Made by a program: the position numbers and the translations under genes
From: Escherichia phage vB_EcoM_VR26
Sequence record: NC_028957.1
Direction: 5' to 3' (one strand)
DNA length: 64,000 nt
Shown here: in pieces, positions 4,296 to 63,942 of the stretch
Layout of the letters: the number at the start of each line of letters is the position of its first letter
How positions within the stretch are numbered: position 1 is the stretch's first letter
Notes under the pieces: model-generated
Databases searched by the model: none
What the model was told of the DNA's origin: nothing
The model's input: only the letters and a program-made list of their open reading frames with translations

Positions 4296-4562
4296 TTAGC
4301 GAAGTAAACAGTAAGCCTGGAAGACCTTCTCCATAATTGCCTTAAATTCGTGGATGTCAATATAAGGGATAACCTCAGCATCACTAATGAATTCCATCAG
4401 CCGGTCATGCTCTTCACGATAATAAGCTTCATTCAGCTTGCTGATATGAGATTCCCAGGAGCCATACCCTTCTGCACGTGGGAAGAATGTTATTTTCATG
4501 AATTCATCCACCCAAAACGTTCCCAGGTCCTGGACGGATATCATTGTATGATTGATGTGCAT
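4296..4562 (-). CDS. hypothetical protein (88 aa)
   Basis: ORF track; co-oriented small early ORF. Confidence 0.45.
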   Translation of the reverse strand: MHINHTMISVQDLGTFWVDEFMKITFFPRAEGYGSWESHISKLNEAYYREEHDRLMEFISDAEVIPYIDIHEFKAIMEKVFQAYCLLR

Positions 4563-4828: not shown

Positions 4829-5169
4829 TTCGCGCCCTTAACAATTTTCAGGTCAACAAAACCTTTCTTACGCTGGGAATTCATGCGCTTGATGGCTTTG
4901 TCAGAAACTTCTTTGTTTTCACGTGGGAGCGGCAGACCAAACGCTACTACATCAAATTCATTCAGGATATACTGGACAAGGCTTTCACGAATACGCGCTT
5001 TACCCATTGTCTGACCTTCTGCAATAATCAACTTCTGTACATCACCTTCCCACTGGTCCAGAATCTCAGGAGTAACGAAACCAGATTTCATCAGAGTGTT
5101 AACTTTAGCAAATGCGAAATTAGCGATGGTGTTAGTGATAGATGCAGTCATGATATATTCCTCAGTCAA
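4825..5169 (-). CDS. hypothetical protein (114 aa)
   Basis: ORF track; 4-nt overlap with downstream ORF. Confidence 0.5.
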   Translation of the reverse strand: MTEEYIMTASITNTIANFAFAKVNTLMKSGFVTPEILDQWEGDVQKLIIAEGQTMGKARIRESLVQYILNEFDVVAFGLPLPRENKEVSDKAIKRMNSQRKKGFVDLKIVKGAK

Positions 5170-5223
5170 TTAAATTAAAATTTTATTATCCTTGGGGTCA
5201 TTATACCATGACCCCGTTGGTTT

Positions 5224-9025: not shown

Positions 9026-9189
9026 TTAAAGTTCCAGAATGAAGCACCAACCAGAAATAAAGGCCAACAAATCATAGACGTCAGCCACCAACAAAAATCA
9101 CCTGCACCAAAATCATCTAATTTAGCTAGGGTCTTAGCATACCCAATACCAATGATAATATACAAAACACCCAACATTAATTCAATCAT
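9022..9189 (-). CDS. hypothetical small membrane protein (55 aa), below ORF-track cutoff
   Basis: Own translation: MIELMLGVLYIIIGIGYAKTLAKLDDFGAGDFCWWLTSMICWPLFLVGASFWNFK; ATGA overlaps with nrdC stop upstream and next ORF start downstream. Confidence 0.5.
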   Translation of the reverse strand: MIELMLGVLYIIIGIGYAKTLAKLDDFGAGDFCWWLTSMICWPLFLVGASFWNFK

Positions 9190-22145: not shown

Positions 22146-22604
22146 TTAGATATAAATCACTTTTGTGCTAATTTTTCCTTCCAGACGATTAGAGTTAACA
22201 AACGCCATACGACAACACATGGTTGGAGACTTCCCAGGAAGAGCTGGGTTAACTGTCATTCCTAACCATAAGTTCTTGTCTGTGATTTCCAGACGAAGTG
22301 GACGGTAGTTCACATTCGGGTCAATTTGTGCTTCAACTTCCGGGAGTGGTTTCATCTCCAGGAATTCAACAATTTCTTTTACATGTGGTGTGATTTTTCC
22401 AAACAAGTCAAAAACATATTGTTCGTCAATTTCACGTTGGATTGCACGGTCCAACAGGTGTGGACTGTACTTAATGAAGAATGCTTCAAGGCCTGCTTCT
22501 TTACAAGCCTTGTTGATAGCATTATTAATTTTGAGGAACTCCGTTTCAAAAATACGACGAAGTTTATTGCGGCGAATGTAAACACTTGAATCGATAGTAG
22601 TCAT
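22146..22604 (-). CDS. regB: Site-specific RNA endonuclease RegB
   Basis: MTTIDSSVYIRRNKLRRIFETEF...SPHLLDRAIQREIDE matches T4 RegB from memory; start at ATG 22604 with SD GGAGA (track GTG start at 22661 lies in the promoter). Confidence 0.9.
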   Translation of the reverse strand: MTTIDSSVYIRRNKLRRIFETEFLKINNAINKACKEAGLEAFFIKYSPHLLDRAIQREIDEQYVFDLFGKITPHVKEIVEFLEMKPLPEVEAQIDPNVNYRPLRLEITDKNLWLGMTVNPALPGKSPTMCCRMAFVNSNRLEGKISTKVIYI

Positions 22605-22631
22605 GATTATCTCCTTTTGTTTGATGGGATA

Positions 22632-22661
22632 ATCATAACTCATTTCAACCTGCTTGTACAC
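22632..22661 (-). promoter_or_regulatory. T4-type early promoter upstream of regB
   Basis: GTGTAC -18- TATGAT. Confidence 0.45.
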
Positions 22662-22966
22662 TATTCTTTAAAACGAATTAGCTTATTTAATGACTGTGAG
22701 ACTTCAGCACGAACAGCGTGTAAATTCTTAAGCTGTTCAAGGCGTTGCTCGTAGTAAGCAATTTCATCTTCTTCAAGACAGTCGTTTGAATCTTCTTTAA
22801 GATAGTTCCCGTAGTCCTGAAAGGCCTTACGAATAACTTCCTGGAAATCGTCTAGACTTTGAATTTTTGGCTGTTTCGGTGTGAATCCAAACGGATTGGA
22901 ATCATTTATGCGGCGATGAGAAGCGGTTGATAACTCATAACCAAAACCAGAATTAATCTGCGCCAT
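22661..22966 (-). CDS. hypothetical protein (about 101 aa)
   Basis: ORF track; start moved to internal Met giving TAATG coupling with upstream ORF. Confidence 0.45.
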
Positions 22967-23229
22967 TAGTATTTTTCCTCGGATCGAAATACTGCACGAC
23001 ATGCCCACATGCTGGCTTCTTTTAGATGTTGCTTAGCATACTTAAGAGCCTGCACTGCATCCATATCTTCTTTGGTTTGTTGCTCTGTTTCATTTTCTTT
23101 CAAGATATATGCTTCTTCAATCAGAGCATCAAACATCAATCCAAGACGGACTTCTGCATCTTTAATAGCGTTCACTTTACCGATTTTATCGTCGGTGTGC
23201 GGCTTGTAACCTTTGATATCTTCAATCAT
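22966..23229 (-). CDS. hypothetical protein (about 87 aa)
   Basis: ORF track; start moved to Met 23229 giving ATGA coupling with upstream ORF. Confidence 0.45.
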
Positions 23230-23459
23230 TTCACTTCCTCGCCAGTTGCGATATCGTATTCTACCAAACGAAGGCCATCGGTCCAACCCTGAACGGAGAT
23301 ATAAGTGCTAGGATAAACCAGTTCTTTACCGTTCCACTGACCACCGTCCCAAACTTCCAGAAAGTCTTGTTCACCCGGACCATTAAACCATTCAACGAAT
23401 CTTTTCAAGGCTGCATCAGAGCCTTCAATCGTCAGTTTAGACATATTTTTTCCAGTCAC
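23226..23459 (-). CDS. hypothetical protein (77 aa)
   Basis: ORF track. Confidence 0.45.
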   Translation of the reverse strand: MTGKNMSKLTIEGSDAALKRFVEWFNGPGEQDFLEVWDGGQWNGKELVYPSTYISVQGWTDGLRLVEYDIATGEEVK

Positions 23460-23733
23460 TAATTAATCGCACATCCTGGTCATACGTCAGGAGGCTACGA
23501 GTTATAATACCCTTACATGGTCCAGAAATAAATTCCAGAGTAAAGTAAGGAACCAACTTCATCAAGCGAATACTCGGAGCAGTGCAACGAAATCTGGACC
23601 CAATAAAAGGTCCAGACAAAAACACGTACTCAAAGAAATTTGCTTTATTAAAGATTTCAAAATTCTTTACGAAATCTTCAGACCTAACCTTTGGAATAAA
23701 ATAGATTTGGTCAAAAAGCTCTTCATGAGTCAT
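23437..23733 (-). CDS. hypothetical protein (98 aa)
   Basis: ORF track. Confidence 0.45.
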   Translation of the reverse strand: MTHEELFDQIYFIPKVRSEDFVKNFEIFNKANFFEYVFLSGPFIGSRFRCTAPSIRLMKLVPYFTLEFISGPCKGIITRSLLTYDQDVRLISDWKKYV

Positions 23734-24260
23734 TATTGCATTCCTATCACAAAGAATAGCGGTAAAGGCTTAGCGCCTTGACACATAAATTTATTCATCA
23801 TTACCTGATAAGCTTCATAGAACTTATCCATCGCTGGAAGTCGCATGGGCTCTTCGATAATAATCAATAATCGAGTAACAGATAATCCACGATACTTATG
23901 GAAGTTATCTTCGTCTAAAAATGAACGAACGGTATCATAGGCGATAAATCCAGGGCGTTCTACTTGAAGATGTGGTTGTGCCTTAGAAACCTGTTTTATT
24001 ACATTACAGATTTCTCGTGAGCGATGTGAAGAACTCGACATAACAATCACATCATTACCCTTAGAAACCCAATCTGCTGCAAACTGCGCAAGGGCACTTG
24101 TTTTACCTGTTTGACGACCACCGTCAAGTCGAAGAGTACCAAACTCTTGCATTCTTGAAGCAGGTTCATACCAGGTGTATTGGTCTGAATCTAAGCGTTC
24201 AATGGCGCGTTCAGCGAAGGCGTGCATTAAGGTTAGATAAATTGGAGTTAAAAATTTCAT
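23733..24260 (-). CDS. small P-loop NTPase-like protein (175 aa)
   Basis: Walker A-like DGGRQTGKTSAL and Walker B-like LLIIIEEP. Confidence 0.5.
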   Translation of the reverse strand: MKFLTPIYLTLMHAFAERAIERLDSDQYTWYEPASRMQEFGTLRLDGGRQTGKTSALAQFAADWVSKGNDVIVMSSSSHRSREICNVIKQVSKAQPHLQVERPGFIAYDTVRSFLDEDNFHKYRGLSVTRLLIIIEEPMRLPAMDKFYEAYQVMMNKFMCQGAKPLPLFFVIGMQ

Positions 24261-24421
24261 AGTTGTCTCTTAGTTGTAGGGCCATTCCTTGGCACATTAA
24301 TTCGTCCATGTATCCGAATGTAAACCCCTTACCGCACTCGGGCTCGACCTTATTACAGGTAGGGAAAGGTCCATCACTCAGAGGACACGACGTTCATGAG
24401 GAGAGGGTCGGTTTGCCTTTA

Positions 24422-24724
24422 TTAAAAAGAACCAGAGCCTTTAATTGTGTTCTGGCGACCTTTATTTTCTACTTCAGAATGGTCGATTTCGTATGCTTGT
24501 GCTACGCCAAAGGCCTTTTTAACTTTAGCTAAAGAACCTTTAGATGTAACAATATTAAAAGTATTGCCTTTGGTAAAATCAACCAAATCCACTTGCACCC
24601 CTTGTTTACCGAGGCTTGCTACAATAGCATCAACATATTGTTGGTCTAAATTGCCTTGAACCCCAATTTGAAATGCTTTAGGAACTTTAGCAGATTCAGT
24701 AATAAATTCTTGATATGTTTTCAT
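24422..24724 (-). CDS. Internal-protein-like capsid-targeted protein (MKTYQEFITES leader)
   Basis: N-terminus MKTYQEFITE matches the capsid-targeting leader shared by T4 IPI/IPII/IPIII as recalled. Confidence 0.7.
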   Translation of the reverse strand: MKTYQEFITESAKVPKAFQIGVQGNLDQQYVDAIVASLGKQGVQVDLVDFTKGNTFNIVTSKGSLAKVKKAFGVAQAYEIDHSEVENKGRQNTIKGSGSF

Positions 24725-24737
24725 ATTGTTTCTTTAA

Positions 24738-25052
24738 TTAAGCTTTAGGGAAATCGCGCAAAAACGCATCATAAAGTTTATTACCAATGCGACGGAATGC
24801 TTTTGCCGCATGAACGTTATCTGGGTTTGCAATTTTAATCTGCATTACATGACTACCAGCCCATGATTTAGCTTCGTCATAATAACCTTTAATTTCTTTA
24901 ATAGTCTTGCGTTTTCCACCAGGACCATCGACAGTAATTTTCCACGAACCAGTGCTTGTTTCACTTGGTGGGGTTAACTGTTCAATCCAGACATAACCAC
25001 CTTCAACACGTTGTTGAGTAGATTCAGTAATAAATTCTTGATAAGTTTTCAT
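24738..25052 (-). CDS. Internal-protein-like capsid-targeted protein (start at MKTYQEFITES)
   Basis: Track ORF extends to 25091; internal MKTYQEFITEST at 25052 is the likely start. Confidence 0.7.
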   Translation of the reverse strand: MKTYQEFITESTQQRVEGGYVWIEQLTPPSETSTGSWKITVDGPGGKRKTIKEIKGYYDEAKSWAGSHVMQIKIANPDNVHAAKAFRRIGNKLYDAFLRDFPKA

Positions 25053-25100
25053 TTTATATTCCATTGTTTGGTTGATAAAATCATTATACAACCTTTTTAG

Positions 25101-25517
25101 TTAAGCGTACACAGCTTTCCCATAGTATTTGTACCAGGTAGGCTTTTGAGAAATTTTCTCATTCAGTCTGGATTGACTGATTTCAATTGACCAGATTGAT
25201 GGTTGATAATCATTCTTCCATTCATCAGGAATATCATTTAAATCTTGGGTAGAAATATCTTTTATATTAAACCCTCGCTTTAAACATTCAGCAATAAGTT
25301 CTTGATGACGGTTTTTAAGGAACAAAAGCTTATCATAAAAGAAGGTGACATGACCAGTTCCTAAAAGAAAAGATGATGGGATTTTAAAGTCAGACACCTT
25401 TTTACCATTTTGCACATGCTTACGAACAGCACCAAACACGCGAGGAAGCTCACGATATTCAGCCATAAGGTGTTGGTCGGCAAGTTCAGATACCAGGGTT
25501 AAATTAATGCGAGTCAT
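25101..25517 (-). CDS. denV: Endonuclease V (pyrimidine-dimer DNA glycosylase) DenV
   Basis: 138 aa; [35 protein letters not shown]...[11 protein letters not shown] matches T4 DenV from memory. Confidence 0.95.

Positions 25518-61635: not shown

Positions 61636-63942
<2,307 letters not shown>

Follow-up and report, generated by a model that had tools for sequence, protein, structure and literature searches.

The open reading frame at 23733..24260 on the minus strand of the window (the whole 64,000-nucleotide stretch of Escherichia phage vB_EcoM_VR26, record NC_028957.1, that was analyzed here) is the Gaprivervirus orthologue of T4 vs.8, and its product is a free-standing, single-domain derivative of subdomain I of the T4-type gp17 ATPase: derived from a terminase, but not a terminase. 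The explanation as a whole, in which Vs.8 is the T4 vs.8 orthologue, a descendant of the gp17 ATPase core and, as we infer, a factor in the conflict between phage and host, has in our estimate a probability of around 0.6. The gene was already catalogued and annotated, and the terminase-like nature of its T4 counterpart has been published; the sequence and fold results presented here reach that classification as a terminase-like ATPase independently.

Identity and translation start of vs.8

Over 3 kb this region of the window is 97.1% identical to Escherichia phage vB_EcoM_VR7 (Straboviridae, Tevenvirinae, Gaprivervirus), in which the gene at the same position is named vs.8. VR5_115, which bears the annotation "similar to bacteriophage T4 Vs.8", shares 98.9% identity with the protein, and the protein matches PHROG 1488, a family labelled as being of unknown function, over its full length (E 7.1e-69; residues 1-175 on profile positions 1-177 of 177). 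Identity to the orthologue of the T4 group (T4_ev151) is about 38% over 99% of the length. The T4 protein itself (NP_049732; PHROG 1488) is encoded in the same place, after denV and the IP genes and before vs.7, and shares a core of the same length with the same invariant motifs. The annotations of T4, T4_ev151, VR5 and VR7 likewise agree on the genomic position, which is downstream of denV and the IP genes, upstream of vs.7 and abutting it, within the vs-regB operon. The residues that are specific for the family in our alignments (A1 and A2) are all present in the window protein, namely the N-terminal helix with M12 and F15, TLRxDGGRQxGK, the RG pair, hhhh[DE]EP and the C-terminal PLFFVxGxQ. 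The coding sequence and its ribosome-binding site are located as follows:

23733..24260, minus strand: vs.8 coding sequence, a single ATG open reading frame of 175 aa plus stop (the end coordinate takes in the stop codon), encoding a stand-alone terminase-type ATPase core
24267..24271, minus strand: Shine-Dalgarno-like AAGAG, 6 nt before the vs.8 ATG, read from the sequence

The ATG start is sound, because the N-terminus MKxLTPxYL is kept across the family (M1, L4, T5, Y8 and L9 are conserved), the AAGAG lies at 6 nt and an in-frame TAA is found 12 nt upstream of the ATG. At the other end the protein reads ...FFVIGMQ*. The T4 reference annotates vs.8 as a protein of 219 aa, with 41 additional N-terminal residues and a start inside a conserved RNA element upstream of the gene (see below). 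These 41 residues are probably not translated, and the start was probably set wrongly.

A conserved ATP site of the terminase type

Four sequence elements of the protein are considered here:

24090..24122, minus strand: Walker A or P-loop, G47-GRQTGKT-SAL57 (residues 47-57), with the terminase-type R49-Q50 before G52-K53-T54
23886..23891, minus strand: R124-G125, the conserved 'RG' ahead of the Walker B strand, aligned to V244-R245-G246 of gp17
23847..23870, minus strand: Walker B strand and catalytic carboxylate, L131-LIIIEEP138 (residues 131-138, with E136 and E137)
23736..23765, minus strand: C-terminal strand and end of the protein, L166-PLFFVIGMQ175, with P167, F170, G173 and Q175 invariant

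An earlier note, made from the sequence alone, had described a 175-aa protein with a Walker A (GGRQTGKTSAL) and a Walker B-like (LLIIIEEP) motif. Both strings are indeed present in the open reading frame, the protein containing LRLDGGRQTGKTSALAQF and SVTRLLIIIEEPMRLP. The note had named beforehand a lack of conservation among homologues as the finding that would overturn it. In an alignment of 43 Vs.8 homologues, ranging down to 38% identity, D46, G48, R49, G52, K53, G125, L132 and E137 are invariant, and Q50, R124, I134, I135 and P138 are conserved in at least 90%. Since the motifs are conserved in homologues, its reading was not refuted; judged by this sequence conservation, the Walker A and B motifs are not a product of chance.

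The type of the site can be read from its details. An Arg-Gln pair inside the P-loop is a hallmark of terminases, and an acidic pair with an invariant second Glu, directly after the Walker B strand, is the signature of ASCE ATPases. On the basis of these motifs Vs.8 should bind ATP-Mg, and it would probably hydrolyze it slowly.

Descent from the ATPase core of gp17

The window contains the full-length paralogue of this core, which was used as comparator:

62107..63939, plus strand: gene 17, large terminase (TerL) of 610 aa, with Pfam matches to Terminase_6N (E 6e-56) and Terminase_6C (E 2e-29)

The motif numbering of this TerL is identical to that of T4 gp17, in which the Walker A motif is formed by residues 161-167 and the catalytic Glu is E256. 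Subdomain I of the T4-type gp17 ATPase is represented by the structure PDB 2O0H and by Pfam Terminase_6N. The homology of Vs.8 to the TerL ATPase core is detectable both by profile and by fold. Alignment of Vs.8 (A2) with a profile of residues 121-380 of the window TerL by means of hhalign yielded a probability of 96.4% and an E value of 1.1e-9, with Vs.8 34-152 spanning gp17 147-271 and the Walker A, RG and Walker B elements in register: GRQTGKT falls on SRQLGKT (161-167), R124-G125 on R245-G246 and LIIIEE on MIYIDE (251-256). The AlphaFold2 model of Vs.8 (pLDDT 89) shows a single five-stranded Rossmann-like domain, of which the last strand is formed by residues 168-172. The fold, the R-Q-x-G-K-T P-loop, the RG pair, the Walker B strand and the catalytic Glu are therefore common to Vs.8 and gp17 subdomain I, in the same order and register.

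Other searches gave little. Pfam Terminase_6N (PF03237) scored 13.7 bits on Vs.8 (E 0.048), below the gathering cut-off of 22, and some homologues (P0026, P0029) bear a precomputed PF03237 match. The match to the TerL family PHROG_2 is weak (E 0.0017), and generic AAA and STAND families of Pfam match below threshold (E 0.01-0.02). Searches of PADLOC and NCBIfam with Vs.8 returned no match, and when PDB sequences were searched with the profile no E value fell below 0.7. A pairwise BLASTP of Vs.8 against the window TerL was not significant, the RQxGKT segment aligning at an E value of 6.5.

Terminase_6C, present in the window gp17, was absent from Vs.8 in the Pfam search. Of TerL, the 140 residues at the N-terminus, subdomain II, the linker and the RNase H-like nuclease have no counterpart in Vs.8, and the TTT coupling motif is missing too. 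Because these parts of the packaging motor are missing, Vs.8 cannot cut or translocate DNA. Going by the order of secondary-structure elements only, the C-terminal strand of Vs.8 would sit where TerL has the strand 281-285 and the TTT motif; hhalign gave no confident alignment of this stretch with TerL.

A helicase needs two RecA-like domains and nucleic-acid-binding motifs. Compared to the RecA1 domains of SF1/SF2 helicases (Mfd, Dda, RecD2, DEAD-box), Vs.8 is one bare domain with a terminase-type P-loop, and the single five-stranded domain of 175 aa rules out a helicase of this kind, in agreement with the earlier remark that the protein is too short for one.

Distribution and evolution of the family

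When 1.84 billion cluster representatives were searched with an HMM and without filters, 65 proteins were recovered at E<=1e-3, of which 23 at E<=1e-30, with one full TerL of 468 aa at the margin. As nearly all of the 65 measure 130-190 aa, the stand-alone architecture is the rule for the family. Among cultured phages Vs.8 was found in 1008 records, and the most common host genera all belong to the Enterobacterales (Escherichia, Klebsiella, Shigella, Enterobacter, Yersinia, Salmonella, Citrobacter and Serratia). A divergent member occurs in Morganella phage vB_Mm5, and this member has weak matches in T4-like phages of Proteus and Providencia. About 1134 records, including one listed Acinetobacter phage, Berthold (81.9% identity), have a TerL ATPase with an identity of 80% or more to that of the window, and around 1400 further records, from phages of Aeromonas and Vibrio and from cyanophages, hold a more distant T4-type TerL. 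Considering these numbers, Vs.8 is a lineage-restricted accessory gene of phages of the Enterobacterales.

The sequence comparison also indicates that Vs.8 diverges far more quickly than TerL: identity to the window is 38% for the Vs.8 of the T4 group, versus around 91% for the TerL ATPase of T4-like (Tequatrovirus) phages such as teqskov. A structure search of BFVD revealed that many small uncharacterized phage proteins share the Vs.8 fold, among others in Proteus, Vibrio and Aeromonas phages and in Pseudomonas jumbo phages. The combination of GK[ST] and [DE]E was present in 75 of the homologues that were scanned. In a distant branch of about 15 representatives the Walker Lys is replaced by His and, where the strand is recognizable, the Glu following the Walker B acidic residue is replaced as well (e.g. 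ARRSGHS ... LLVDV). Given these substitutions, the branch evidently keeps the fold for something other than ATP hydrolysis. A search of cultured phages with one of the His variants (P0138) yielded no match.

The vs.8 operon and its expression

The genes on the minus strand are ordered nudE, e, denV, two IP-like genes, vs.8, vs.7, vs.5, vs.4, vs.3, regB, vs.1 and vs. The neighbors of vs.8 are the following, those from vs.5 to regB with the start set from the VR7 annotation:

24422-24724 and 24738-25091, minus strand: IP-like genes, on the far side of vs.8 from regB
23437..23733, minus strand: vs.7, 98 aa, its start overlapping the vs.8 stop by 1 nt (TAATG); PHROG 2049, E 7e-41
23226-23444, minus strand: vs.5, open reading frame
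22966-23229, minus strand: vs.4, Acb2 homologue; Pfam Acb2_Tad1_hairpin, E 1e-17
22661-22966, minus strand: vs.3, TadIV-1 homologue and homologue of T4 Vs.3
22146-22604, minus strand: regB; Pfam REGB_T4, E 6e-72

Thus, vs.8 heads a tightly packed accessory operon (vs.8, vs.7, vs.5, vs.4, vs.3, regB). The earlier note had placed the gene between regB and the IP-like genes, and it is found there, with the qualification that four small genes (vs.7, vs.5, vs.4 and vs.3) intervene before regB.

In T4 and VR5 vs.8 and vs.7 abut as well (4-nt overlap), and the two proteins have nearly the same distribution (Vs.7 in 925 phage records, Vs.8 in 1008). The genes are probably translationally coupled and their products may work together. 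For Vs.7, family searches gave nothing informative, the only matches being to PHROG families labelled 'unknown'; four close homologues only were found, which carry the precomputed Pfam label PF26834, and the AlphaFold2 model (pLDDT 46) is unusable.

Two of the neighbors connect the operon to counter-defence. T4 Vs.4 is equated here with Acb2, an anti-CBASS sponge. T4 Vs.3 was identified in 2026 as TadIV-1, which sponges up the signal of type IV Thoeris (PMC13243611). In the same study the T4 vs.8-vs.3 block was cloned in E. coli and single genes were expressed from "the promoter of vs.8"; when Vs.3 to Vs.8 were tested singly, only Vs.3 inhibited type IV Thoeris (PMC13243611). Expression from this promoter in E. 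coli implies a promoter for the host RNA polymerase, hence of the early type, and the single-gene expression shows that T4 Vs.8 is not grossly toxic. A sigma-70 promoter scan of the vs.8 leader in the window gave no site that passed the thresholds within the leader, and the scan of 22600-25200 gave 5 sites, fewer than the shuffled mean of 6.8. By eye, only a weak TTTACA-17-ATTAAT can be discerned in the leader.

The link to Avs2

Functional data on the T4 orthologue come from a study in which T4 proteins were screened in silico against the terminase sensor EcAvs2 (Nat Commun, Aug 2026; PMC13601566). There, T4 vs.8 was called "an uncharacterized ATPase-like protein"; it was described as a homologue of the T4 terminase ATPase that resembles it in structure and possesses Walker A and B motifs, and it was toxic upon co-expression with EcAvs2 (PMC13601566). 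AlphaFold 3 placed T4 Vs.8 (ipTM 0.84) in the EcAvs2 pocket for the ATP-loaded terminase ATPase, in a model that includes the "bridging ATP" that contacts the terminase-bound ATP (PMC13601566). The authors suggested that non-terminase activators of Avs2 may be anti-defence proteins that Avs2 has learned to detect (PMC13601566). Ksap1 and Ksap2 (of Dhillonvirus and Stephanstirmvirinae) resemble T4 Vs.8, when compared by description, in being small, lineage-restricted phage proteins with a terminase-ATPase-like sheet that trigger Avs2, whereas sequence homology to terminase and Walker motifs are mentioned in the literature for vs.8 only (PMC13601566). Within the Vs.8 family, activation of Avs2 has been reported for T4 vs.8 only; the window orthologue is just 38% identical to it, so the result is not simply transferable.

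Possible roles of Vs.8

Our reading of the role, which is tentative and to which we assign somewhat less than even odds, is that it depends on the ATP-loaded terminase-like surface, and that Vs.8 is an early accessory factor in the conflict between phage and host, not a metabolic enzyme. The proposed mechanism starts from four observations: a fully conserved terminase-type nucleotide site, the lack of motor and nuclease parts, a place in an early accessory operon rich in counter-defence genes, and fast divergence outside the ATP site. Vs.8 would act through its terminase-like face, presenting terminase-directed host factors with a mimic or decoy of the terminase ATPase. This face, loaded with ATP, may be what the immune sensor sees, going by the literature on the T4 orthologue, and some Avs2 alleles may have learned to detect Vs.8.

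Several observations argue for a role in conflict: the anti-defence neighborhood, with an Acb2 domain in vs.4 and TadIV-1 as T4 Vs.3, and the toxicity of T4 vs.8 with EcAvs2 together with its modelled position in the terminase pocket. The distant branch that lacks the Walker Lys and the catalytic Glu speaks for a non-catalytic use of the fold. The association with Acb2 and TadIV-1 is a weak argument, because regB resides in the same operon. Against a decoy in particular stands the sole functional datum, T4 vs.8 with EcAvs2, which is an activation of immunity, where a useful decoy would have to do the reverse, and against a role in conflict the inactivity of singly expressed T4 Vs.8 towards type IV Thoeris (PMC13243611). 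In true orthologues the catalytic Glu is strictly invariant; this suggests that hydrolysis is important, and argues against a passive mimic.

The latter observation favors the main alternative, although we regard it as rather doubtful: Vs.8 would be a true ATPase that acts early, together with the coupled Vs.7, and its substrate would be a nucleic acid or a protein (e.g. in remodelling or loading), while its recognition by Avs2 would be an accident of ancestry. The invariance of the whole catalytic set, including E137 and R124-G125, fits this alternative, as do the overlap between the vs.8 stop and the vs.7 start in three genera and the nearly equal distributions of the two proteins (1008 versus 925 records). 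It has to contend with the lack of a second domain or recognizable substrate-binding module within 175 aa, with a putative partner that has no informative family match and a model at pLDDT 46, and with distant relatives that keep the fold despite the loss of Lys and Glu.

A modulation of DNA packaging is less probable still. Here the truncated gp17 ATPase would join or cap assemblies of gp17 or gp16 and so tune the assembly or timing of the terminase, in line with the homology to the gp17 ATPase core that extends to the RG before Walker B. Nevertheless, gp17 is the product of a late packaging gene, whereas vs.8 lies in an accessory operon of the early type together with regB, far from genes 16 and 17 and on the opposite strand. 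In addition, Vs.8 has nothing of TerL beyond the ATPase core and diverges far faster than gp17, and most T4-type phages outside the Enterobacterales package their DNA without it. Finally, of the "minimal kinase or ATPase" that had been suggested in the earlier note, the ATPase half agrees with the terminase-like ASCE site, while a P-loop kinase, in spite of the small size, the Walker A motif and the weak generic P-loop matches in Pfam, is highly improbable: such kinases are recognized by a kinase-GTPase type core that has no catalytic Glu after Walker B, by a lid or substrate-binding insert and by kinases as structural neighbors, and Vs.8 does not answer to this description.

A candidate structured RNA upstream of vs.8

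The interval between the stop codon of the ip7-like gene and vs.8 is occupied by an element with the following features:

24279..24420, minus strand: conserved structured RNA element, around 140 nt, GC-rich
24416-24420 with 24365-24369, minus strand: H0, closing helix
24394-24407 with 24371-24382, minus strand: H1, hairpin
24358-24364 with 24326-24333, minus strand: P2, helix closing an almost invariant 24-nt loop (24334-24357)
24408-24412 with 24313-24317, minus strand: long-range (pseudoknot) helix
24281-24293, minus strand: 3' hairpin

The DNA of the element is near-identical in the window, VR5 and T4, while the adjoining Vs.8 proteins are 38% identical. It was recovered by blastn in 1021 phage records, and its core is also found in the rV5-like Vequintavirus; further contigs, of about 46-70 kb, 75 kb and 96 kb, came from scanning IMG/VR for its pattern. 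In phages that are not of the T4 type the element lies within a few hundred nt of tRNA genes, on the same strand. An intrinsic terminator follows it in one of these (L049), and in one contig of the T4 type (L016) it precedes an IP-like gene, not vs.8.

The approximately 140 nt before vs.8 probably form a strongly conserved, covarying RNA with a pseudoknot, as indicated by the comparison of sequences. Across four helices in 17 T4-type sequences, 90.7% of the cells were paired and the covariation score was 0.201; shuffled controls averaged 0.059, with 0 of 500 reaching 0.201, and slid controls stayed at or below 0.081. The long-range helix crosses the other helices, and thus makes a pseudoknot, and one of its positions has four Watson-Crick pair types. 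Among 26 sequences that represent six phage groups, each of the five H0 pairs changes on both sides (AAAGG/CCUUU, AAAGC/GCUUU, GGGAG/CUCCC, UGAGU/ACUCA and GGGG/CCCC) and 93.6% of the cells are paired, in an alignment that was fitted to the covariance model and hence leans towards structure. The match of the covariance model in the window spans 24288-24437 (171 bits), and the G-U pairs fit the vs.8 strand. Folding energies gave no such signal: that of the single sequence was no better than for shuffles (z -0.24), and a duplex-energy test of the long-range helix, lacking significance in most sequences, reached nominal p values of 0.02-0.05 in 3 of 20 (L012, L049 and L044), none of which would survive correction for multiple testing.

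A coding function of the element was rejected, as the frame across it differs between phages and contains an in-frame stop in the window, and a repeated cassette of the PeSL type was rejected since the window contains one copy only. No E. coli match was found, either host-derived or antisense, and 17-mer matches in bacterial genomes were at the level of chance. Rfam covariance models returned no relevant match at E<=10 for 24150-24800 of the window, nor at E<=1 for the T4 and rV5-like copies, and the element goes unmentioned in the main text of a catalogue from 2023 that comprises more than 10,000 candidate viral RNAs. It could be a leader or stability element of the vs.8 operon, or an independent stable RNA that is processed alongside tRNAs.

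Implications

Combining both parts of the analysis, one may picture Vs.8 as an early-made mimic of the ATP-loaded terminase ATPase, which would occupy or mislead sensors of the Avs1-3/Upx type, or others, before gp17 appears, EcAvs2 being a counter-adapted exception; the operon would be preceded by a pseudoknotted RNA, not described before and present in rV5-like and tRNA-array phages as well, that is stable or regulatory in its own right. In this full form we consider the picture unlikely. As an ordinary, catalogued orthologue the vs.8 of the window adds little by itself. The RNA may be the more original item, being covarying, without an Rfam family, and present in about a thousand T4-type genomes as well as in unrelated phages near tRNA genes. 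The VR7-type orthologue, 38% identical to that of T4, offers a natural second test case for the generality of Avs2 recognition and of counter-defence. What gives the gene its wider interest is that large lytic phages keep a fast-evolving, free-standing copy of the packaging ATPase beside their proven anti-defence sponges, although it is able to betray the phage to a terminase sensor.

A conserved RNA element precedes vs.8

Between the stop codon of the ip7-like gene and vs.8 lies a non-coding, covarying and strongly conserved RNA element, of which copies were located in T4 (NC_000866) and in further phage records and contigs (L-numbers):

Window 24279-24420, minus strand: RNA element
T4 (L042) 4329-4456: copy
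L004, about 1440-1620: copy
L049 7888-8008: copy
L062 1904-2021: copy
L043, L045, L046, L053 and L059: copies

A 24-nt loop within the element is nearly invariant (UGUAAUAAGGUCGAGCCCnAGUGC), and the fold probably includes a pseudoknot. In about 1000 T4-type genomes vs.8 follows directly downstream, and in rV5-like and other phages the element adjoins tRNA genes. Comparison of the window, T4 and rV5-like copies with Rfam returned no family for it.

Some T4-type contigs of 172-177 kb carry a second, divergent tandem copy immediately after the first, with the core AAGGCCAGUCCGCGACGGUAAGGGG; these second copies were not detected by the covariance model at E<=1:

L052, about 5090-5170, minus strand: second copy
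L054, about 9100-9180: second copy

In the contigs of 46-70 kb (L043, L045, L046, L053 and L059), repeated TTCCGTTGTG(G/A) boxes punctuate the region around the RNA core. Both contigs that were scanned for tRNA genes (L045 and L046) have them near the core, which suggests that the core is part of a processed multi-RNA transcription unit.

Start sites of T4 Vs.8 and the IP-like genes

T4 Vs.8 is annotated with 219 aa (L042 3754-4413, corresponding to 64253-64912 of the record), of which the 41 extra N-terminal residues are a translation of the conserved RNA element; these codons are in a frame that other phages do not preserve. The internal MRTFLTGPYL is probably the true start, and it is where the annotation of the relative T4_ev151 begins the protein, whereas the T4 reference begins 41 residues earlier.

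The two IP-like genes are as follows:

Window 24738-25091, minus strand: IP-like gene
Window 24422-24724, minus strand: IP-like gene

Both products open with MKTYQEFITES, an N-terminus of the capsid-targeting type. The first is listed with a TTG start (117 aa), but translation probably begins at an ATG inside this ORF (25052), yielding 104 aa, the same length as Ip10 of VR7. Unlike the window, VR7 has an extra small ORF between ip7 and ip10.

A His-variant branch of Vs.8-like proteins

Among the proteins recovered in homologue searches, some small proteins resembling Vs.8 form a distant branch (P0121, P0128, P0129, P0135, P0136, P0138, P0141, P0143-P0147, P0149, P0151 and P0152) that has His in place of the Walker A Lys, as in ARRSGHS. 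Where a Walker-B-like strand is recognisable, the Glu after its Asp is lost as well, and judged by these motifs the proteins look like ATPase-dead derivatives. Among cultured phages P0138 found no match.

The operon headed by vs.8

Three genes of the operon are located as follows:

Window 23437-23733, minus strand: vs.7
Window 22966-23229, minus strand: vs.4, Acb2/Tad1 hairpin domain
Window 22661-22966, minus strand: vs.3, homologue of T4 TadIV-1

Homologues of Vs.7 carry the precomputed Pfam label PF26834, and the AF2 model of Vs.7 itself was unusable (pLDDT 46). T4 possesses a GrcA-like vs.6, whereas the window has none, and neither have VR5 and VR7. TadIV-1 of T4 is described as an anti-type IV Thoeris sponge (PMC13243611). 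The Acb2/Tad1 hairpin in vs.4 and the TadIV-1 homologue vs.3 make the vs.8-led operon a counter-defence island.
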